Below are positions 28,886 to 43,076 of a DNA stretch of 64,000 bases, in pieces. The DNA comes from an uncultured candidate division Zixibacteria bacterium (lineage in GTDB: Bacteria; Zixibacteria; MSB-5A5; UBA10806). The translations under genes were made by a program, and so were the position numbers. The stretch lies in the NCBI GenBank assembly GCA_963801605.1, contig CAWDFP010000008.1, positions 10,314 through 74,313 on the forward strand, given 5' to 3'. The notes below the pieces were generated by a model that made no database searches, was not told where the DNA came from, and saw only the letters and a program-made list of their open reading frames with translations. Numbering within the stretch: position 1 is the stretch's first letter; each line of letters opens with the position of its first letter.

Positions 28886-31570
28886 CTATCCAATCGTCTT
28901 TGAGACTTCAACGGTGGAATCGGAGGAATATGTAATCTCAAAACCCAGTTTTTGAAAAACCGAGATCATGGGGCCGTTATTTGTCGTAGTGACTGCTGTT
29001 ACCATTCGAAGCTTCCATTTACCTGCGATTTCCAGACAGTATTCAGTTAGGATTTTGCCTAGGTCCTTTTGCTGCCAGGCATCGGCGATAAGCACCGCAT
29101 ACTCAACGCTTTCATGGTCGAGATCGGCAATCAGCCGGCCTACACCGATCAATTTCCTCGCTCCATTCTCCTCGATCTCGGCTACGATAGCGATTTCTCT
29201 ATCGTAATCAATATAGCAGTAACGGGCCGCAACCTCATGCGAGGCCCATTGGAAAAAGTAGCGGAATCTCAGATAAATCGATTCTTTGGAGCAGCTTGCC
29301 AGAAGATTCATCCATAACGGCTCATCCTCGGGCTTTATCGGGCGAAGTATTACTTTGGTGCCATCCCTGAGCGATACAGTCTTAACATATTTTTCGGGAT
29401 ATGGCCTGAGCGCCAGATGTGAATAAGGTTCAAGGGCCTTTCCAATTAAAGTATTATCCATCACGATACGAGCATCAAGCGCCACTACCCCTTTGGGGCT
29501 GACAAGCAACGGATTAATATCGAGTTCGCTTATTTCCGGATAATCCGCAGCCAGATAAGATAGCCTGATAAGGGTCTCGATCAGCTTATCGGTATCGGCC
29601 GGTGGCCTGCCACGGTAACCTTTCAGAAGCGGCCAGATTTTTAGCGATTCCAACATTCTGCGGGCTAATCTTTCATTGAGAGGTGGAAATCCAAGCGCTT
29701 TGTCCGCAAAAAGCTCGGCAGCTACTCCACCCATACCCGCCATTATAATTGTCCCAAATATTGGGTCCTTTTTTATGCCGATGATAAGCTCGGTCGAATC
29801 TCCCTTGGTCACCATTCGCTGAACAGTAACACCCTCGATCCTGGCCTCGGGCTTTTTCTGACTGACGCTTGATATTATTCTTTCGAAACTTTCGCGCACC
29901 ATGGCCTCATTATCAACGCTTAGAGCCACGCCGCCAACATCCGTTTTATGAGTAATATCCGGCGAATGAATTTTAAGAGCCACTGGATAACCAATCTGAT
30001 TGGCGATATACACGGCTTCATCGGCTGTTTTCGCACGATGCGGACGGGTTACCGGAATGCCGTAGGTTTCGATAAGAGACTTGGAGATATCCTCGGATAA
30101 GGTGCTGTTGCCGCCGAAATTCGAGGCTACGAATTCGGTCCGAAGCTTTTCTCGGTCCACGTTGAAATCAACCCGGATATCCTTGGGAGTGTCATAAAGC
30201 GTCTCAAGGTTTTTCGAATAAGAAACTAATGTCATAAAAGCTCTGATGGCCTGCTCGGGGGTTCTATATGATGGTACACCGGAGTTAATTAGTATCTGGT
30301 CCCCCTCACGCATAGCCGCTCCCCCCAGCCAGGCGGCGAGTATCGGTTTGGAGGTGCTTTCAGAAAGTCTGGCAACGACCTTGGCTGCTGCGGTCGGGTT
30401 TGTCATGGCTTGGGGAGTAAGAATCACCAGGACAGCATCGATGGCGGTATCCTGCAAAACTATTTGAACCGCTTTTTCGATCCTTTTGGAGTTGGCGTCA
30501 CCTAAAACATCGATAGGATTACTATGCGACCAGGCAGGCGGCAAATTTTCATTCAGGGTTTCCATAGTTTTATCAGACAATTTGGCCAACTCGCCACCTG
30601 ATGCTATAAGCGAGTCCGTAGCCATAACGCCCGGGCCGCCGGCGTTGGTGACGATCCCCAGCCGTGGGCCTTGAGGAATCTTGCGACGGCCGATAAGTTC
30701 GACGCAATCGAATATTTCTCCAATATCGAATACCCTGGCCACTCCGATACGCTGAAAGGCAGCGTCATACACAGCATCTTCCGAGGCCATGGCGCCGGTG
30801 TGCGATGCCGCCGCCTTGGCAGATTCAGGAAACCGTCCCGCTTTATACGCAATTATTGGTTTGGTGCGCGCAAAGGCCCTGGCGGCCGTCATGAATTTGC
30901 GGGCTTGCGAAATTGATTCGATATAGAGTATGATCGATTCGGTATTTTCATCTTCTCCGAAATAATCGATCAAATCACCGAATCCGACATCGATCGTATT
31001 TCCAATAGAGACGAAATGCGAAAACCCGATTTTACCTTCAAGTGCCCAATCGAGCACCGATGTACATAGCGCTCCCGATTGCGAAATAAAGGCTACATGC
31101 CCGGCTTTCGGCATGCCGGCCGCAAAACTGATATTGAGTTTTTTGCCTGGTGAAATTATCCCCAGGCAGTTTGGACCGATTATTCTCATGCCTCGAAAAC
31201 ATGCTGCCTGTTCCCTGATTTTTTCTTCAAGCGCTTTGCCCTCAGCGCCGATTTCTCTAAATCCGGCCGATATAATCATCAAGCCCAAAATACCGGCCTC
31301 GCCGCATTGGCGTACCAAATCGGGAACCTGAACAGCTGGAGCGCAGATCACACCCAAATCGGGCATATTGGGTAATGATTTAATGTCTGGATAGCAGCTT
31401 ATTCCCAGAACTGCCTCTCGGTCCGGATTTACAGGGTAAACTACACCATCAAAGCCTCCGCCAACGAGATTGGCAAGCAGTTTCCCCCCCACGCTGTTGG
31501 GGTTGGACGTTACCCCCATCACCGCTATCCGTCTGGGGCTGAAAAACCGATTTAAATTATGTACATCCAT
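28886..31570 (-). CDS. Acetate-CoA ligase-like/GNAT fusion (Pat/PatZ-type protein lysine acetyltransferase)
   Basis: GPNCLG, SQSGA, SHTGAMA, NAGGPGV, HKTDVGGV, ELDINPL, C-terminal GNAT (LRPIKPEDE, IDYDRE). Confidence 0.9.
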   Translation of the reverse strand: MDVHNLNRFFSPRRIAVMGVTSNPNSVGGKLLANLVGGGFDGVVYPVNPDREAVLGISCYPDIKSLPNMPDLGVICAPAVQVPDLVRQCGEAGILGLMIISAGFREIGAEGKALEEKIREQAACFRGMRIIGPNCLGIISPGKKLNISFAAGMPKAGHVAFISQSGALCTSVLDWALEGKIGFSHFVSIGNTIDVGFGDLIDYFGEDENTESIILYIESISQARKFMTAARAFARTKPIIAYKAGRFPESAKAAASHTGAMASEDAVYDAAFQRIGVARVFDIGEIFDCVELIGRRKIPQGPRLGIVTNAGGPGVMATDSLIASGGELAKLSDKTMETLNENLPPAWSHSNPIDVLGDANSKRIEKAVQIVLQDTAIDAVLVILTPQAMTNPTAAAKVVARLSESTSKPILAAWLGGAAMREGDQILINSGVPSYRTPEQAIRAFMTLVSYSKNLETLYDTPKDIRVDFNVDREKLRTEFVASNFGGNSTLSEDISKSLIETYGIPVTRPHRAKTADEAVYIANQIGYPVALKIHSPDITHKTDVGGVALSVDNEAMVRESFERIISSVSQKKPEARIEGVTVQRMVTKGDSTELIIGIKKDPIFGTIIMAGMGGVAAELFADKALGFPPLNERLARRMLESLKIWPLLKGYRGRPPADTDKLIETLIRLSYLAADYPEISELDINPLLVSPKGVVALDARIVMDNTLIGKALEPYSHLALRPYPEKYVKTVSLRDGTKVILRPIKPEDEPLWMNLLASCSKESIYLRFRYFFQWASHEVAARYCYIDYDREIAIVAEIEENGARKLIGVGRLIADLDHESVEYAVLIADAWQQKDLGKILTEYCLEIAGKWKLRMVTAVTTTNNGPMISVFQKLGFEITYSSDSTVEVSKTIG

Positions 31571-31829
31571 AGTTTTATCCTAAATTATTATCCAATCTTG
31601 TTCAACCATAACACAAAGGTAACTAATTACGCCTTTTTTATCAAGATCGATAGCCAATGAAATCGATGCTAGGATAACATTCCTTGACTTGATAAGCCGC
31701 TATGTTATATTAGCTTTGGATGAAAAAATGGCATTTCCGCTAAGCGGATTAATTATTTAAGCCAGGAATCATCCCCTCGTTAATTGGAGCTATTAATAAT
31801 ATTGAGTCGGTTAATTTCGGCATTGACAT

Positions 31830-31860
31830 TTCTATGAGTAATTTAATAGTGCTCATAGAA
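31830..31860 (+). promoter_or_regulatory. Inverted repeat next to TTGACA upstream of the PAS-LuxR gene
   Basis: ttctatgagta-atttaatag-tgctcatagaa immediately after TTGACA (31823-31828), about 35 nt before ATG 31895. Confidence 0.5.
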
Positions 31861-31894
31861 CAAAAATCAATGATTTCGTTTAGGGAGAATCTAT

Positions 31895-34800
31895 ATGATT
31901 GTCGATGAAACAAATCAAAGAGATTCGCAAAATGGAAATCGAAATCAAGGCGATCAACAAAATGCTGGTACTAATGCCATGAGCCGACTCTCTCGGCGAA
32001 ATGAGCTTATTCGGAATAACTCTCCCGATGGTCTGGCCATTATAGGGCTGGATGGGACAATTGTTGACGCTAATCCTGCGCTTTGCAAATTTCTCGGATA
32101 TTCAGCGGAGGAGCTTCAAAAATTGAATATCAGGGATATTGACGCCAACGAAAAACCCGATGAGACCGGACAGCGCATAATCAATATAATAAATTCCGGG
32201 GCAGATAGATTTGAAACCAAGCTTCGGCATAAAAGCGGGCAGTTGCTTGATGTTTATATTTCAGCTGATTTTTGTCAAATTGGCGACGAGCAATTTATCA
32301 TTTCATTTTCACAAGATATTACAGCCCGTAAAAAAGCGGAGGAACGGCATCGGGAAAGCGAGGAAAAATACCGCAATTTGATCGAAATGTCTCCTCATAC
32401 CATTGCTATTTTGCAGGATGGCAAAGTTGCTTTTGCCAATAAAAAGGCCGTAGAGCTTTTTGCGGGAAGTGTTACGGCTGATGTCATTGGCAGAGACGTT
32501 TTCGACGTCGTACCCGAGAATGAGAAGGCGCGTTTGCGCGAATTCGCGGAGAGGCGCTATACCGGGGATACATCAGTCCCGGTCCGCTATAAAACAGCTT
32601 TACGCCGCGCGGATGGCGAAGTATTCCCGGTAGAGATATTTGCCGATCAAATCATCTTTCGCGGCAGGCCTGCAATTCAATTAATGGCTATCGATATTAC
32701 CGAACAGGAACAAGCCGCCGCGGCTTTGAAAGTATCGGAAAGTAAGTATCGAACTCTCGTAGAGCATACTAATGCTGTGACATACGAATTCCGACTTGGA
32801 CCCAATATGGGCTTTATCTATATCAGCCCACAAATTGAAAAGCTAATTGGCTATAACGCGGATGAATTAATATCTGATCCGTCCCTATGGACCAGCTTGC
32901 TACACCCGGGGGACAGTCAACGCGCCAGAGAAAGCGCCGAAAGGCGCCTGACAGGCGGGTCGCCGCTAAGCAATGAATACAGAGTAATCGCCAAAAACGG
33001 CAGTATTGTCTGGATTAAGAACGAGGCGATCATCGAGCGCGATGATAAGGGGCAGCCGAATATTATCCGCGGCGTTATTCTTGATATTACCAGCTTGAAA
33101 GAAACCGAAGCCACGCTGGCATCATCCGAAAAACGTTATCAGGAATTGTTTAATTCGGCTCTCGAGGGAATTGTCATTAGCGATATAAATTACGTTATAC
33201 AATTTTGCAACCCGGCTATCGCCAGCATTTTTGAGATACAAGATGTATCCGAGATTATCGGCAAAAGCACGTTAGATTTGGTAATTGACAGCCAGAAAGA
33301 AGTTCTCATCGATCAAATGAAGCTTCGTAAAAAGGGTTTGTCTACGCACTATGAGCTTCAAATAATAACCGCTTTAAAAAATTCCAAAACTCTTTTGGTT
33401 TCCTCATCTCCTTTATATGAATCCAATGGAGATTTCCGGTGTATATTGAGCGCAGTAATCGATATCACCGAAAGCAAGCGCGCCCAGGCGGCCCTGGCCG
33501 CCTCTGAAAAGCGCTATCATGAGCTTTTCAATTCCGCCCTGGAAGGAATAGCCATTTTCGATAAAAACCTGATTGTGCAGTTCTGCAATCCGGCGTATGC
33601 CAAAATTTTCGATATGAATACGCCCGAAGAGGTGGTTGGTGAAAATCCATTGAATTACATTGAGGGAAACCAGAAGACAATTGCTATCCGGCAAATTGAA
33701 ATGCGCAAAAAAGGGTTATCATCAACCTATGAATTAGAAGTTATAACGATAAAGAAAAACAGAAAAACGCTCCTGGTATCATCGGCGCCAATGCTTGATT
33801 CCGAGGGTAATTTTTCGGGCACTCTCAATACGGCAATCGATATTTCCGAACGCAAACAAACCGAGGAGGCTTTGCGTACTAGTGAAGAATTCAATCGAAC
33901 GGTAATCGAACATTCTCCGCTGGCAGTATCGGTTCGAAACCGAACAGGGAAGCTATTAAGCTGCAATCGGGCCTGGCAAAAAATATGGAATAGAACGGAC
34001 GAAGAAATAAAAGAGATGTTGACGAAAGAGATCCCCGCGCTTCAATTTACGAAAGGCGATGATTATCTAAAGGACTGGCACCCAAAGGTAAGAGCCATTT
34101 ATGAGCGCGGCGGTAATTTGCATATACCCGAGGTTAAATTGCTATACCATCATGAAGGTGGAGAACACTGGGTATCGCAGCATTTCTACGGTATCAAGGA
34201 CCAAAGCGGCGCTGTGGGAAAAGTAGTCATTCTGACTGAGGATATTTCCGAACGCAAGCAGGCCGAAAATGCGTTGCGCGAAAGCGAACGACGGTTCCAC
34301 GATCTTTTTGCACATTTTACGTCCGGGTATATGATCGGCAGGATCATTACGGATGATGCCGGCAAGCCTATCGACTACATATACCTTGAAGTCAACGAAG
34401 CATTTGAGGAAATGTCGAAGAAGAAAGCATTCGAAGTCATTGGCAAAAGAGTTACAGAGCTTTTTCCCAGCGGACACTCTGCAGGCCTCATCAAAGTATG
34501 CGGTGAAGTTGCGTTGACCGGCAAACCCATTCGAATTGAGCATGAATCATTAGTAGTTGGCCGGTTTCTTGAGGTGCTTATATATTCCACTCGCCAGGGC
34601 GAATTTGCCAGCGTCTTCACCGATATAACTGAAAAGAAAAAATCTGAAAACGCCCTTCGCGAAAGCGAGGAACGCTATAGAGCCATTTGGGAGAACTCTC
34701 CGGTTGGAATATGTATGCTGGATTACAGAGGAGTATATCAATATGTAAACAGGACCTATTGTAATATCTACGGTTATTCGTCAGAGGAGTTGATCGGAAA

Positions 34801-36397
34801 ACCTTTTTATGAGCTTATCACACCGCCGCAGCGCCGGGTGCAGGATCGGGATAATTATATGCGAGAATTCGGTAAATCCCGAACTTCGCAAGTACGGGAA
34901 GCTGAAGTATTTGTAAGAAAAAGCGGCGAATCCGTGGCTATTCAATTCACCAACGATTACATAATGCAGGACGGTCAAGCCAGGTACGAAGTAACCATGA
35001 ATATCGATATTACGCCGAAGAAACGCGCCGAGGATGCTATGCGTGAAAGCGAGGAGAAATTCAGGCTTTTGGTAGAAAATGCGGGTGAGATTATCGTAAA
35101 TGCTGATCGAAACGGACGGCTCCTCCATGTCAATAAATCAACCGCCAGATATTTTGGCAAAACACCCGAGGAAATTATAGGCAAGAATATTAAGGATTTT
35201 TTTGAACCGGATACGGCAGAACATTTCATTGAAAGTATTAATAAGGCGCTGGATACCAATAAAAATCTAAGCGTCGAACGAAAGATTTTCCTCGTTGGCG
35301 AACGCAAGTGGTTCGTTACAAACCTGCAGCCTATAATCAGAAGTGACAATGGCCCGGCCAGCGTGCTGATTATTACCAGGGATATTACCGTTCAAAAGCT
35401 TGCCGAGATACGTAACCAGGCTCGGCTGCAACTCCTGCAGAACCTACGCCAGGCTAAAAATGTCGATGAATGTTTAAAATTCGGGTGCCAGGCAATCTAC
35501 GATACCGAGCTTTTCAAACGAGCTGTTTTGACGCTGCATAATAGCGATAGGGCCATAATCAATTTGGGACAAGTTGGTCTTAGCGCTGCTGTTGTTACCA
35601 AAGCCAGAAAAGGTTCGGCTCCGGATATCGCCCTTGCAAAAAAAATCATGAAAGAGACTAATCGCATCAGCCACTCTTTCTTCGTTCCGATAGAAAGCGG
35701 AATAATGAGCAAAATTAAAAGCCGCTACGTCCCGCAAAAAGGAACTCATTTTCCGGGCCCGCAGAAGTGGCAACAGGAAGACGAGCTATTCGTGCCGGTG
35801 ATGGGTAACGACAATAATTATGAGGGCTGGCTTTCTGTCGATACTCCCTTCGACGGGAATCGTCCCACCATGCAGACTGTCTTAAACCTGGAAGAGATAG
35901 TTGATATTACGGCCAAACAGATTCATGAAATCCAAAGTCTCGAGCGTCTAAAAAAAGAGAGTCAGGCGCTGGAGAATACTAACGTGGCCCTGCACGAAGT
36001 GTTGAAACATATTCAGGAAGAAAGGATGGAAATTCGGCAGAGTATCGGCAGTAATGTTTCTCAAATTCTGATACCTGCTTTTAACAAGTTATTCAAAAAA
36101 GATGGTACAATCAATAAAACCTATTACAATATTCTTAGAGACGGACTTCCGGAGCTTGTTACGGTCTCGGGTGCAGAACTGAACATGTTTGCGAAACTAT
36201 CTCCCCGGCAACGTGAAATCTGCTATATGATAAAAAGCGATGCTACCTCGAAGGAAATAGGCGAGGCACTCAATATTTCTCTGGCTACGGTTCAAAAACA
36301 TCGGGAGTTAATCCGCAAGAAATTAGGAATAAACCACAAATCAGTCAATTTGGCTAACTATCTTAAAGGTATACAGAATAAAAGGTTAGAGCAATAA
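31895..36397 (+). CDS. Multi-PAS (9) + GAF-like + LuxR HTH one-component transcriptional regulator
   Basis: Nine PAS/PAC repeats ending in DIT/DIS linkers; C-terminal LSPRQREICYMI...SKEIGEALNISLATVQKHRELIRKKLG; no kinase or REC domain seen. Confidence 0.85.
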   Translation: MIVDETNQRDSQNGNRNQGDQQNAGTNAMSRLSRRNELIRNNSPDGLAIIGLDGTIVDANPALCKFLGYSAEELQKLNIRDIDANEKPDETGQRIINIINSGADRFETKLRHKSGQLLDVYISADFCQIGDEQFIISFSQDITARKKAEERHRESEEKYRNLIEMSPHTIAILQDGKVAFANKKAVELFAGSVTADVIGRDVFDVVPENEKARLREFAERRYTGDTSVPVRYKTALRRADGEVFPVEIFADQIIFRGRPAIQLMAIDITEQEQAAAALKVSESKYRTLVEHTNAVTYEFRLGPNMGFIYISPQIEKLIGYNADELISDPSLWTSLLHPGDSQRARESAERRLTGGSPLSNEYRVIAKNGSIVWIKNEAIIERDDKGQPNIIRGVILDITSLKETEATLASSEKRYQELFNSALEGIVISDINYVIQFCNPAIASIFEIQDVSEIIGKSTLDLVIDSQKEVLIDQMKLRKKGLSTHYELQIITALKNSKTLLVSSSPLYESNGDFRCILSAVIDITESKRAQAALAASEKRYHELFNSALEGIAIFDKNLIVQFCNPAYAKIFDMNTPEEVVGENPLNYIEGNQKTIAIRQIEMRKKGLSSTYELEVITIKKNRKTLLVSSAPMLDSEGNFSGTLNTAIDISERKQTEEALRTSEEFNRTVIEHSPLAVSVRNRTGKLLSCNRAWQKIWNRTDEEIKEMLTKEIPALQFTKGDDYLKDWHPKVRAIYERGGNLHIPEVKLLYHHEGGEHWVSQHFYGIKDQSGAVGKVVILTEDISERKQAENALRESERRFHDLFAHFTSGYMIGRIITDDAGKPIDYIYLEVNEAFEEMSKKKAFEVIGKRVTELFPSGHSAGLIKVCGEVALTGKPIRIEHESLVVGRFLEVLIYSTRQGEFASVFTDITEKKKSENALRESEERYRAIWENSPVGICMLDYRGVYQYVNRTYCNIYGYSSEELIGKPFYELITPPQRRVQDRDNYMREFGKSRTSQVREAEVFVRKSGESVAIQFTNDYIMQDGQARYEVTMNIDITPKKRAEDAMRESEEKFRLLVENAGEIIVNADRNGRLLHVNKSTARYFGKTPEEIIGKNIKDFFEPDTAEHFIESINKALDTNKNLSVERKIFLVGERKWFVTNLQPIIRSDNGPASVLIITRDITVQKLAEIRNQARLQLLQNLRQAKNVDECLKFGCQAIYDTELFKRAVLTLHNSDRAIINLGQVGLSAAVVTKARKGSAPDIALAKKIMKETNRISHSFFVPIESGIMSKIKSRYVPQKGTHFPGPQKWQQEDELFVPVMGNDNNYEGWLSVDTPFDGNRPTMQTVLNLEEIVDITAKQIHEIQSLERLKKESQALENTNVALHEVLKHIQEERMEIRQSIGSNVSQILIPAFNKLFKKDGTINKTYYNILRDGLPELVTVSGAELNMFAKLSPRQREICYMIKSDATSKEIGEALNISLATVQKHRELIRKKLGINHKSVNLANYLKGIQNKRLEQ

Positions 36398-36651
36398 ATT
36401 TTATAAATGTTAAGTTCGTAACAATAGCAATTATTAATGGGTCTATTTACAGTATAAAAAGTGATTATCTAAATTACGCATATCAGCAAATAGCCAGAAT
36501 AACACTTTTCAGAATCCCCTAATCGTCAAAGGCAACGCTCCTTCAAATTCGCATATATATTGTATTGTATTACAACCGTTTACAAGATTGGGCTCGTCGG
36601 TTCTTGATTTTAGAAATTAAATCCAGGCGAATTATTTTAGAAAAATCCCAA

Positions 36652-36724
36652 ATATGCGTAAGTTTATATACGCATATATTAAGCTTTTTAACCGGATTGA
36701 CAAAGCTGACAATTATCATATTAT
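36652..36724 (+). promoter_or_regulatory. Sigma70-type promoter with upstream palindromic operator
   Basis: ATATGCGTA-N8-TACGCATAT (36652-36677); TTGACA 36697-36702, 16-nt spacer, TATTAT 36719-36724. Confidence 0.65.
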
Positions 36725-36730
36725 GGCGAT

Positions 36731-37147
36731 GCAAATTGCGATAAACGCAGTTGCCAGAAAGCAAAATGGCAGGGATTTAGTAAAGGCCGTCAATTAGTAA
36801 TAGGTTCTTAAGCGCGGCAGGCCGTCAGGAGGGACACTTAACAGGATCGACATCGGAGTTTGCGATCTGGACAAGGCTACAATGATTATTAGTAATTTTA
36901 GAGCGATCAGTATTGGAAAATTGTTTTCTCCCGAGTATCAAGTCGCCATAAGGAAATCAGAAGGGCTGTTCTCTCCAGCCAACGAAACACGCGTGGTTGC
37001 CTCAATTAAAGGATGGAGGAGGGTCTAAGGATCTCACGGGAGCAGGGAAGCTCCATAAGGATGATTAGATTCTAAGTTTTGGCTCGTCGCTCCGACGGGT
37101 AAACCCGGTATCCCAACCGAAAAGCCGCTCTGCCAGGAGCGGCTTTT
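36731..37147 (+). ncRNA. Candidate CsrB/RsmZ-like GGA-rich small RNA
   Basis: 15 GGA on + versus 3 on - within 36773-37061, several in short hairpin loops; promoter upstream, terminator downstream; no long ORF in this interval on +. Confidence 0.5.
37120..37147. terminator. Bidirectional intrinsic terminator
   Basis: aaaagccgctc-tgccag-gagcggctttt. Confidence 0.85.
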
Positions 37148-37167
37148 AATTTATGGGAAAAGCTATT

Positions 37168-38398
37168 TTATCTGGTGGGTGGACAATCGGGACAGAAGCT
37201 AACAGGCAAGCCTCGTTGAAAACACCATTCCATGAAAGTAACATCCATACCGTTGAATACGCAGTTGCCATTGGCGTCACCGCCGGCGTAAAACGTTCCG
37301 TGAGGCGAGCAATCGCAGGAGTCAGGCGGACGGGGCCCTCCTTTGAAATAGGTTATAGCCATGGTAACGTCCATAAGATTGTAATGATCGTTGCTGTCTA
37401 GATCACCCGGTTTGTAGTCGCAATGGGTGGGATTGAAAGAATATATTTCCATCGTTTCCCAACAGGCCGCATAAACGTAATTATAATCACGCGACACTCC
37501 TTGAGCGCGTGCGGGTGTATGTGCCGACGCTACCTCGATAGGGGCCTCTGGATCGGAGATGCGCGCTACCACCAGCCCCGAATCCTCGACAGCAATATAA
37601 GCATAAGAGCCATTAACAGCGATGCTCCTGGCGTTATCCGGTGTGGCCAGGTTACCTACTATGGTCGGATTTTGGGGATCTATAACATTGACCACCTGCA
37701 TACCGGCGGGACCGTCAGCAACGAAGGCATATCCGCGGGGTAAATTACCCAGAGAAACATCGGTAGCGTTGCCGGGCGTATCGCACGTTCCCAGGATCTG
37801 AATATTATTCGGATCAGCCACGTTCAGAATCATTAGACCGGCGTTACCGGCGGCGACGTACAGATAACGGTCGAATACAAGTCCGGACGCATACCCGGGA
37901 ATCGTAAAGCCACTTATTAATGCTGGAGAACGGGGATTCGAAATATCAATTACTTTAATTCCACCCTCGCTAACGTAGGCGTAATTATCAGGCCAGACCG
38001 CGACAGAGAGCGCCTCCCACATAAAACTAACCGCGCTTAGCGATTCCGGATGCGCCTTGTCGCTGATATCGATAATATAAAGATCGCCCATATAGGGCTC
38101 CGATAATCCTGCCGCCAAAAAAGCCAGGTTTCCGGCAATCTCGATATCAAAAACGGCCGGTGAGGGGTTATAGCTGCCTGTATAGATCGGCGCCGACGGA
38201 TTAACCACATTGTAAATAAGCATCCCCAACATATAATCACCGATATAAGCAAAACTATCAGCAACTGTTACGGACGTTGCGTAAGCCAGCGAATCAACAG
38301 CTCCCATATAAATTAAACCCTGTGCTGAACCGGTAGTTGGTATCAGAAATATGAGCGTTAATAAAAGCGTGACTATGAATGTTCTTTTTACTTAGCAT
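37168..38398 (-). CDS. Secreted LVIVD-repeat beta-propeller protein with C-terminal dockerin-like domain (frameshift in signal-peptide A-run near 38387)
   Basis: Repeats YAYV/AFVA...GL.I.(D/N)VS.P..P; RBS AAGGAGG before ATG 38398; signal peptide RTFIVTLLLTLIFLIPTTGSAQ in the frame of the main ORF. Confidence 0.8.
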
Positions 38399-42156: not shown

Positions 42157-43076
42157 TTAAAGCAGACCGTACTTCTGAATGTTGTTTTCGGCGATCTGAC
42201 GGATCTTCTCAAGCTCGGCTTCGGCGCCGGCTTTGAAGAGGTGTTTGAACCGTCCCTGAGCCTTGAGGTAATCCTCAACCGGCTGACGGGTCTTCCCTAT
42301 TTTGCGCACGCGGGTCGAGCTTATTCCACTCGTATTCGACGATCGGGAACAGCCCGGTATTGACCGCTATTTTCGCGATCTCAATCGTCTTTTCCGACGG
42401 ATAAATCCAGCCCAGCGGGCAGGGCACGTGAACATGCAGAAATTTCGGCCCTTTGATCTTGAGCGCCTTCTTGACCTTGCTCATCAAATCTTGCGGATAG
42501 CCCACGGTGGCGGTGGCAGCATACGGAATTCCATGCGCCGCGCAGATTTCGAGCAGGTTCTTTTTCTGATGCTGATTTCCGAAACTCACCGCGCCAGAAG
42601 GCGAAGTCGAGGTGCGAGCGTCAAACGGAGTCAACCCGGAACGCTGCACACCGGTATTCATATAGGCCTCGTTGTCGTAACAGACATAGAGGATATTGTG
42701 GCCGCGTTCCAGCATACCGGATAGACATCCGATACCGATATCAGCCGTACCGCCGTCACCGCCCTGCGCGATGATATTGATATCACCTCAGTTCACCCTT
42801 GGCCATCAGCGCGGCTTCAATGCCGGCCGCTACCGCCGAGGAGTTCTCGAACAGCGAATGCACCCAGGGCATCCGCCAGGCCGATTCCGGATACGGGGTC
42901 GAGAAGACCTCGAGACACCCGGTGGACGTGGCGACCATTGTGTTGGGGCCGGCAGCGTCCATAACCAGCTTGGCGCCTAATGCTTCGCCGCAACCGGCGC
43001 AAGCCCGATGCCCGCTGGTAAAGAGCGACTCGGTGACCGGCGCCTTACCTTTTTTAGTTTCAACTGTATCTGACAT
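42157..43076 (-). CDS. porB: Pyruvate/2-oxoacid:ferredoxin oxidoreductase beta subunit (2 frameshifts)
   Basis: [40 protein letters not shown]. Confidence 0.9.

Follow-up and report, generated by a model that had tools for sequence, protein, structure and literature searches.

The window analysed here, a stretch of 64,000 nucleotides (nt) from an uncultured bacterium of the candidate division Zixibacteria (contig CAWDFP010000008.1, positions 10,314 to 74,313, forward strand), contains the gene of a 1500-amino-acid (aa) regulator with a LuxR-type helix-turn-helix (HTH) and, directly behind it, a predicted small RNA (sRNA). To judge from sequence comparison, regulator, operator and sRNA form a real and conserved cassette, which is VqmA-VqmR-like in its logic and a member of neither the VqmA-VqmR nor the Gac/Rsm systems. 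As a whole it is, on balance, best explained by a phosphorylation-independent activator combined with a base-pairing RNA that carries a C-rich seed. In such a circuit the PAS and GAF domains would sense a ligand or the redox state, and the regulator would dimerise through a long helix and bind four TACGCA-type half-sites that end at the -35 box just 3' of its own gene. Binding would activate rather than repress the promoter, from which an sRNA of about 420 nt would be transcribed; this RNA would pair via its seed with methyltransferase leaders, with repression or destabilisation as the guessed outcome.

The original prediction had described a protein with nine PAS domains, a GAF-like domain and a LuxR HTH, lacking kinase and receiver domains, and both statements are borne out. 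Nine D-I-T/S motifs, typical of the C-terminal part of PAS domains, are located at residues 141, 267, 397, 523, 649, 783, 910, 1038 and 1163, of which hidden Markov models resolved seven (PAS_9) or eight (TIGR00229) as repeats, and the HTH is matched by GerE. None of the 12 Pfam matches of the protein belongs to the HisKA, HATPase or receiver families. For the GAF region neither Pfam nor NCBIfam gave a match; in an AlphaFold model of the GAF-linker-HTH part, built on an 18-sequence alignment (pLDDT, the predicted local distance difference test, 85), it resembles the GAF domains of DosT/DosS (best E 7e-5), and a 70-residue helix runs from GAF into the HTH. A single-sequence fold reached a pLDDT of 41 and was set aside. 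The linker was also considered as a degenerate kinase and this was rejected: the HisKA_3 likeness (probability 1.3%, not one of the 25 best-scoring Pfam families for 32 members) is a lead only, and the H-box-like position holds no His. Read from its domain content, the regulator is presumably soluble and cytoplasmic. Homologue P0038, 96% identical over the output module, has 1630 aa and about one extra PAS unit, which suggests that PAS number may have changed recently.

The predicted operator lies where an activator would be expected. With a predicted transcription start near 36731, the centre of the perfect palindrome is found near -66, as had been claimed; the chance of such a palindrome is 0.07 per window, allowing up to three mismatches. 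Overlooked earlier were the half-sites at 36680 and 36691, which are part of the conserved motif, and the triplet of direct repeats they complete is its most widely conserved portion. The promoter itself is the top of 16 promoter-like sites in 31500-37300. Sites ending at -35 fit activation via contact with RNA polymerase, and the operator position hence suggests activation, with repression as the alternative. Two additional lone half-sites occur 100-190 nt 5' of the palindrome (36475-36483 and 36549-36558).

Homologues were gathered by an alignment-based scan of genome contigs; a single-protein scan gave zero matches. With a linker-HTH profile the regulator was recovered in 28 of 41 related genomes, in one to nine copies each and with lengths from 179 to 1846 aa. 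Named relatives in the scan were mostly Zixibacteria, with some Latescibacterota, Krumholzibacteria and loosely labelled bins. Downstream of these homologues the element recurs at a constant 22 nt before TTGAC, its core being three half-sites (consensus TACGYA, 11-bp period), the last of which touches the -35 box; the palindrome consists of the first half-site of this core and an upstream inverted copy, found mainly in the two closest families. Two of the 107 homologue matches were dropped, an unrelated LuxR protein and a locus lacking downstream DNA, which left 105 distinct ones. In 61 of these the motif is present within 700 nt downstream (leave-one-out, above 12 bits), often no more than 20 nt from the stop codon, against 5 of 1235 long open reading frame (ORF) ends in this genome, three paralogues included. 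A strict pattern was found in 24 of the 41 genomes, namely in 24/28 with and 0/13 without the regulator (reversed control 0 in 41), and with one mismatch in 46 of 201 genomes of the phylum (control 0); because the pattern was derived from the 41 related genomes, only the absences and the non-adjacent matches are independent. Domain content, motif, promoter consensus, terminator and their joint conservation are directly established. Of the synteny expected earlier, regulator, palindrome and a terminated non-coding gap are conserved together across Zixibacteria, but the GGA richness of the gap is not. By these comparisons the link from regulator to promoter appears well supported, and the regulator very probably drives the adjacent predicted RNA.

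Further indications come from the recognition helix. Where E or D follows KHR (56 loci), base 4 of the half-site is G in 147/168 half-sites, and where Q or N follows (12 loci) in 1/36, mostly being C, in a set of 68 loci for which the cut-off was lowered to 2 bits after looking, to include distant members. With the cut-off at 12 bits, C is found in the first half-site in 1/55 (E/D) vs 5/6 (Q/N). The Q/N state needs five changes on the tree, at least four of them forced by well-supported branches; the independent pairs number four, with 2.6 in the same and 0.0 in the opposite direction (sign test p 0.25). The apparent tracking of half-site base by helix residue is therefore suggestive and not significant, and the same holds for binding of the regulator to the motif, as inferred from this link.

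Several findings weigh against the regulator as the dedicated activator of this promoter, the lowered cut-off and the sign test among them. No adjacent motif was found for 44 of the 105 homologues, and 4 of the 28 regulator genomes are without the strict pattern. The -10 boxes are of fair quality, with at least 4/6 matched in 49 of 61 cassettes, so that dependence on an activator is not forced. In this genome three paralogues share the motif and the same KHRE helix, and the neighbouring regulator need therefore not be the activator; one of them, with 585 aa on contig C6, carries a receiver domain and lies behind a sensor kinase. It is accordingly conceivable that a paralogue such as this one is the main protein at the motif, or that the motif is a repressor site, and that the circuit is not self-contained. 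About nine motif promoters occur in this genome, three of them beside paralogues, and many homologues carry a receiver domain (PF00072), as would suit such an arrangement. We nevertheless consider it very improbable, given the frequent adjacency of gene and motif, often directly behind the stop codon, and the genomes that hold both E-type and Q/N-type genes, each beside the matching half-site variant; the sites, moreover, stop at -35 and leave -10 and +1 free, which speaks against a repressor.

The receiver-bearing homologues mean that inputs of both the one-component and the two-component type feed into this output module; the window protein itself is of the one-component kind. The earlier claim of a one-component, phosphorylation-independent regulator is supported for this protein, which has no phosphorylation domain, and does not extend to the family, which is mixed and includes many receiver-bearing members.

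Behind the other motif promoters of this genome are minimal RNAs of 55-75 nt, another C-rich RNA, an ORF resembling an extracytoplasmic function (ECF) sigma factor and a secreted-looking protein. In relatives, 37 further motif promoters were found, 20 with an ORF call and five with a terminator call; 11 of these 20 ORFs have a hydrophobic N-terminus by a crude rule. We propose that non-adjacent motif promoters mostly precede secreted-looking proteins and that the regulator family may drive a small regulon. Stand-alone motif promoters (C6:1786764-1786700, L240; C7:114059, minus strand; L268; L269) are followed by RNAs of 50-75 nt that consist of a G tract and terminator alone. Tandem pairs of motif promoters, with a separate short RNA for each promoter, occur behind a single regulator gene (C6:543299 and 543581; L026; L164), and in L045, L143 and L149 a small HTH-like ORF takes the place of the terminated RNA.

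An inverted repeat upstream of the regulator gene had been noticed as related to the palindrome, which hinted at autoregulation. The sequence is present, with a spacer of 9 vs 8 in the downstream palindrome; control through it is not supported. It is missing from the two closest orthologues, and with a half-site matrix from other genomes it is not among 31 genome sites above 12 bits, whereas the downstream palindrome ranks second in the genome. A pattern made from both repeats matches only these two places, a circular result, and the upstream repeat was rejected as an operator. Homologue L119 has no downstream cassette and carries a perfect palindrome 123 nt before the regulator's open frame.

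The predicted RNA ends shortly before a convergent gene with LVIVD repeats (end at 37168). No part of the window matched Rfam at the gathering score, nor did any of 12 related loci at E 0.5, and a search of RNA sequencing runs returned zero RNA holders. Thirteen small ORFs of at least 20 aa overlap 36400-37150, none with a counterpart in the aligned orthologues. Between the window and two orthologues that were found via the protein, similarity is limited to the promoter and a 3' module made of a 7-bp hairpin, 20 identical nt and the terminator. The features are collected in Table 1.

Table 1. Features of the regulator-sRNA cassette, with positions in the window.
Feature	Position	Strand	Remark
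Upstream inverted repeat TATGAGTA-N9-TGCTCATA	31833-31857	.	Between TTGACA (31823) and -10; not conserved
Regulator gene	31895-36397	+	1500-aa ORF: nine PAS, GAF, long helical linker, LuxR/GerE HTH
GAF-fold domain	35390-35929	+	Approx. residues 1166-1345; found also in many homologues
Helical linker	35930-36190	+	Faint HisKA_3-like register without phospho-His
LuxR/GerE HTH	36194-36343	+	Residues 1434-1483; GerE match; contains Glu1471
Glu1471	36305-36307 (codon)	+	Residue that appears to track half-site base 4
Perfect palindrome ATATGCGTA-N8-TACGCATAT	36652-36677	.	Half-sites 1 (36655-36660) and 2 (36669-36674) of predicted operator
Three direct-repeat half-sites	36669-36696	+	Starts 36669, 36680, 36691; 11-bp period; flush with -35
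Sigma-70-type promoter TTGACA-16-TATTAT	36697-36724	+	
Predicted non-coding RNA	36731-37150	+	Body unalignable with orthologues
GGA-dense stretch	36990-37070	+	7 of the RNA's 16 GGA; no counterpart in two aligned orthologues
Conserved 7-bp hairpin	37083-37099	+	5' of candidate seed
Conserved 20-nt C-rich element	37102-37121	+	Candidate base-pairing seed, before terminator
Terminator hairpin	37120-37147	.	Arms 37120-37130/37137-37147; A-run and T-run flanking

The 20-nt C-rich element points to base pairing as probably the conserved job of the window RNA, judging by its complements elsewhere in the genome. Against the genome's 2233 gene leaders, the seed would form its longest unbroken helices with 15 and 13 bp, the next reaching 11, and both top matches belong to paralogous S-adenosylmethionine (SAM)-methyltransferase genes. 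The complement of the seed stands at the predicted +1 of these leaders in three genomes of the genus and this, too, is directly established. It was kept in 4/4 same-genus copies and in 0/11 orthologues from other genera, in which the window RNA is likewise unseen. In all four copies the site begins 6-7 nt past a conserved -10 box, at the extreme 5' end of the leader, 30-50 nt before the start codon and off the ribosome-binding site. Near-matches to the seed numbered 25, 23 and 15 in the three genus genomes (controls 3, 4 and 6) and 3-13 in 23 other genomes (controls 0-8); in this genome 6/25 place the G-rich strand and 1/25 the C-rich strand in a 5' region, with a background of 11%. In local folds the seed occupies the loop of a 4-bp mini-hairpin. 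Hfq was not found in this genome, which is 87% complete and the only one searched, and C-rich loops that meet G-rich mRNA leaders are a known Hfq-independent mode of pairing (PMC8383071).

Base pairing has a number of points against it. The seed's invariance in six of the seven aligned rows is built in, these six having been fetched by the seed pattern, and the three genomes that hold seed and site are one genus and not independent. In the global fold the UAUCCC core is mostly paired (unpaired 0.17-0.29), blocking leader nt 1-12 gave no structural switch common to the four leaders, and covariation in the 3' module is no better than in shuffles (146/500). A site at the predicted +1 could, furthermore, equally be a DNA operator. 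The element might then serve a genus-specific protein, as an operator over +1 or as an RNA loop, with the window RNA as a decoy or a mere carrier. Besides its fixed distance from the -10 box, CGG-N8-CCG symmetry would agree with this, as would the copies in hairpins 3' of secA and elsewhere between genes, once with the G-rich strand in the loop of a terminator. In this genome's two motif-driven non-coding RNAs and in their orthologues, however, the transcribed strand is the C-rich one, 150-400 nt from the promoter, and the leaders carry the G-rich one; such opposite strands argue against a decoy, which should carry the strand of its target, and make a protein site an improbable explanation.

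As an element of the whole phylum, the C-rich motif was rejected, since most of its 23 matches in relatives and 57 metagenome matches fall within unrelated ORFs; 5 of these 57 have regulator and promoter. A nearly identical C-rich element is situated in a large hairpin loop of the second motif-driven non-coding RNA (C6:772329-772560, L081; L273), which is divergent from the locus of a 307-aa paralogue. The same C-rich element as in the seed is seen in two genomes in a stem-loop after a hairpin 3' of secA (C6:1840939-1840957, L087, L341; L086, L295), convergent with a CusA-like efflux gene (labels from translations), possibly as a 3'-derived RNA. Matches to the seed complement in further 5' regions (C6:118832, C7:106722 and C6:799457, all on the minus strand) are followed by one gene that comes after a ybeY-like ORF and by two for secreted-looking proteins.

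Csr/Rsm sRNAs are driven by LuxR/NarL-type regulators, and the original prediction had therefore seen a Gac/Rsm-analogous module. As a conserved Csr sponge the RNA is not supported by the comparison, GGA richness not being conserved. The 61 cassette transcripts, of which 28 end at a terminator call (median 125 nt) and the others were cut at 200 nt, show no GGA enrichment relative to shuffles (GGA 229 vs 244.7 expected, ANGGA 66 vs 59.7). Six distinct orthologous RNAs, duplicates counted once, share the 3' end, and the window RNA alone is ANGGA-rich: it has 8 vs 2.8 expected (p 0.007), or 12 vs 4.9 with AGGA included (p 0.001), and the other five have one ANGGA each; the region was chosen for its GGA content and these p-values are after the fact. 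Three of its 16 GGA are predicted open, one ANGGA lies in a clean hexaloop, and the RNA ties for second among the genome's 300-nt windows.

CsrA itself is well represented, csrA being present in 41/41 genomes. Here it is found beside fliW (C5:27311-28050; L001, L002), with ORFs about 6 kb upstream that we take from their translations to be sigma-28-like and MinD-like, and csrA-fliW was kept though flagellin was not found in 3/3 genomes of this genus. In the flagellin leaders of flagellated Zixibacteria (L188-L207) an ANGGA hairpin is conserved, about 25 nt 5' of a GGAGGA ribosome site. An ANGGA hairpin near the ribosome site is the layout of CsrA control of flagellin. The canonical hairpins of the relatives, the retention of CsrA in a genus where flagellin was not found and the ANGGA count of the window RNA would be in line with an RNA of dual function, which pairs through its seed and also binds CsrA through GGA repeats gained in this lineage; McaS of E. 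coli is a precedent for such a combination. With so few GGA open, p-values after the fact and a single ANGGA in each of the five orthologues, this is rather unlikely.

The wider model, in which the window RNA and the G-tract RNAs of relatives are CsrA sponges in a Gac/Rsm-like circuit, is more doubtful still. It could draw on the same GGA and CsrA findings and on G5 tracts, most of them ending in GGA, which occur in 36/61 cassettes vs 22.2 +/- 3.3 in shuffles (other strand 5/61). The GGA of these tracts are, however, mostly predicted paired, GGA totals are at the shuffled level, and CsrA is universal where the cassette is patchy. The csrA locus adjoins fliW, and an anti-correlation exists between FliW and BarA-UvrY, the system behind sRNA antagonists (PMC4682653); for FliW-bearing Geobacter no CsrB-type RNA is characterised (PMC13407953).

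The RNAs next to the regulator in other genera are short, with a median of about 125 nt, and contain a G5-8A tract. Since G-rich words are enriched upstream of genes in this genome (60 vs 26.7), our best guess is that the G-tract RNAs behind most homologues may be mimics of ribosome-binding sites. Neither the upstream regions of 1761 genes nor those of 90 regulator genes were enriched in C-tract targets for them, and a translated output behind the G tracts was rejected, no conserved start following them.

The module had not been recognised earlier as described, yet a PAS-HTH protein that activates an sRNA is the logic of VqmA-VqmR. In Vibrio cholerae VqmA, a cytoplasmic protein with PAS and LuxR-type HTH, activates the small RNA VqmR (PMC10335731; bioRxiv 10.1101/2021.04.15.439952). 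Like VqmA, the window protein is predicted to be cytoplasmic and joins PAS to a LuxR HTH without a phosphorylation domain, and a small RNA that would regulate mRNAs is the predicted output. VqmA, according to the same sources, has one PAS domain that binds 3,5-dimethylpyrazin-2-ol (DPO), and VqmR binds Hfq; on its own, the VqmA HTH is an inactive monomer. The regulator here combines nine PAS domains with a GAF and a long helix as linker, in a genome without a detected Hfq. Differences further include one inverted and three tandem half-sites, several paralogues and protein genes in the regulon. VqmA was absent from 46 Protein Data Bank matches to the GAF-linker-HTH profile, in which PAS was not compared, and Rfam gave no VqmR match. 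With BarA-UvrY/CsrB-C and GacS-GacA/RsmX-Y-Z the cassette shares a LuxR/NarL-type HTH 5' of a terminated non-coding RNA, the presence of csrA and a GGA-rich window RNA, but it differs in the missing kinase and receiver, the FliW-type csrA locus, GGA that are not conserved and the lack of an Rfam match. On the RNA side, comparable elements are known from several bacteria, the one of H. pylori under the name RepG. RsaE and RNAIII (S. aureus), LhrC (Listeria) and this H. pylori RNA have a C-rich UCCC element near the terminator and complements in G-rich leaders (PMC8383071). No sequence relation to them was found, and the best target site here is at the extreme 5' end, off the ribosome-binding site. 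Among Atlas clusters, those nearest to one homologue's linker-HTH module are uncharacterised GerE-domain regulators of Thermodesulfobacteriota (scores 0.90-0.91), a lead only. No plasmid match was obtained, and no published account of the regulator family, the motif or the RNAs was found, in literature that excludes most subscription journals.

For a candidate phylum whose regulation has hardly been studied, this yields a regulator family, an operator consensus, a residue-to-base rule, a regulon and an sRNA-target pair, each at the strength given above, and the VqmA-VqmR design, with sensor, activator and RNA output in one locus, would recur in an unrelated lineage in which Hfq was not found. 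Whether FliW-bearing bacteria use sRNAs against CsrA is left open in PMC4682653, and the comparative answer is mostly no, the window's GGA-rich RNA being a direct test case for sRNA-CsrA antagonism. A more speculative and, in our estimate, unlikely picture is that of phylum-wide, modular PAS/GAF/receiver-LuxR activators, each matched to its operator through a single residue of the recognition helix, that govern an Hfq-free RNA network in Zixibacteria, made of C-rich seed RNAs paired to the 5' ends of mRNAs, short G-tract RNAs that resemble a ribosome-binding site and serve as decoys (of C-rich RNAs or of CsrA) and, here, a seed RNA with acquired CsrA-binding repeats; if true, it would include an sRNA antagonist in a non-flagellated FliW-CsrA bacterium.

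Elsewhere in the window, two ORFs of 97 and 146 aa on the minus strand (42275-43076), possibly separated by a frameshift or an assembly error, presumably represent the beta subunit of a 2-oxoacid:ferredoxin oxidoreductase.

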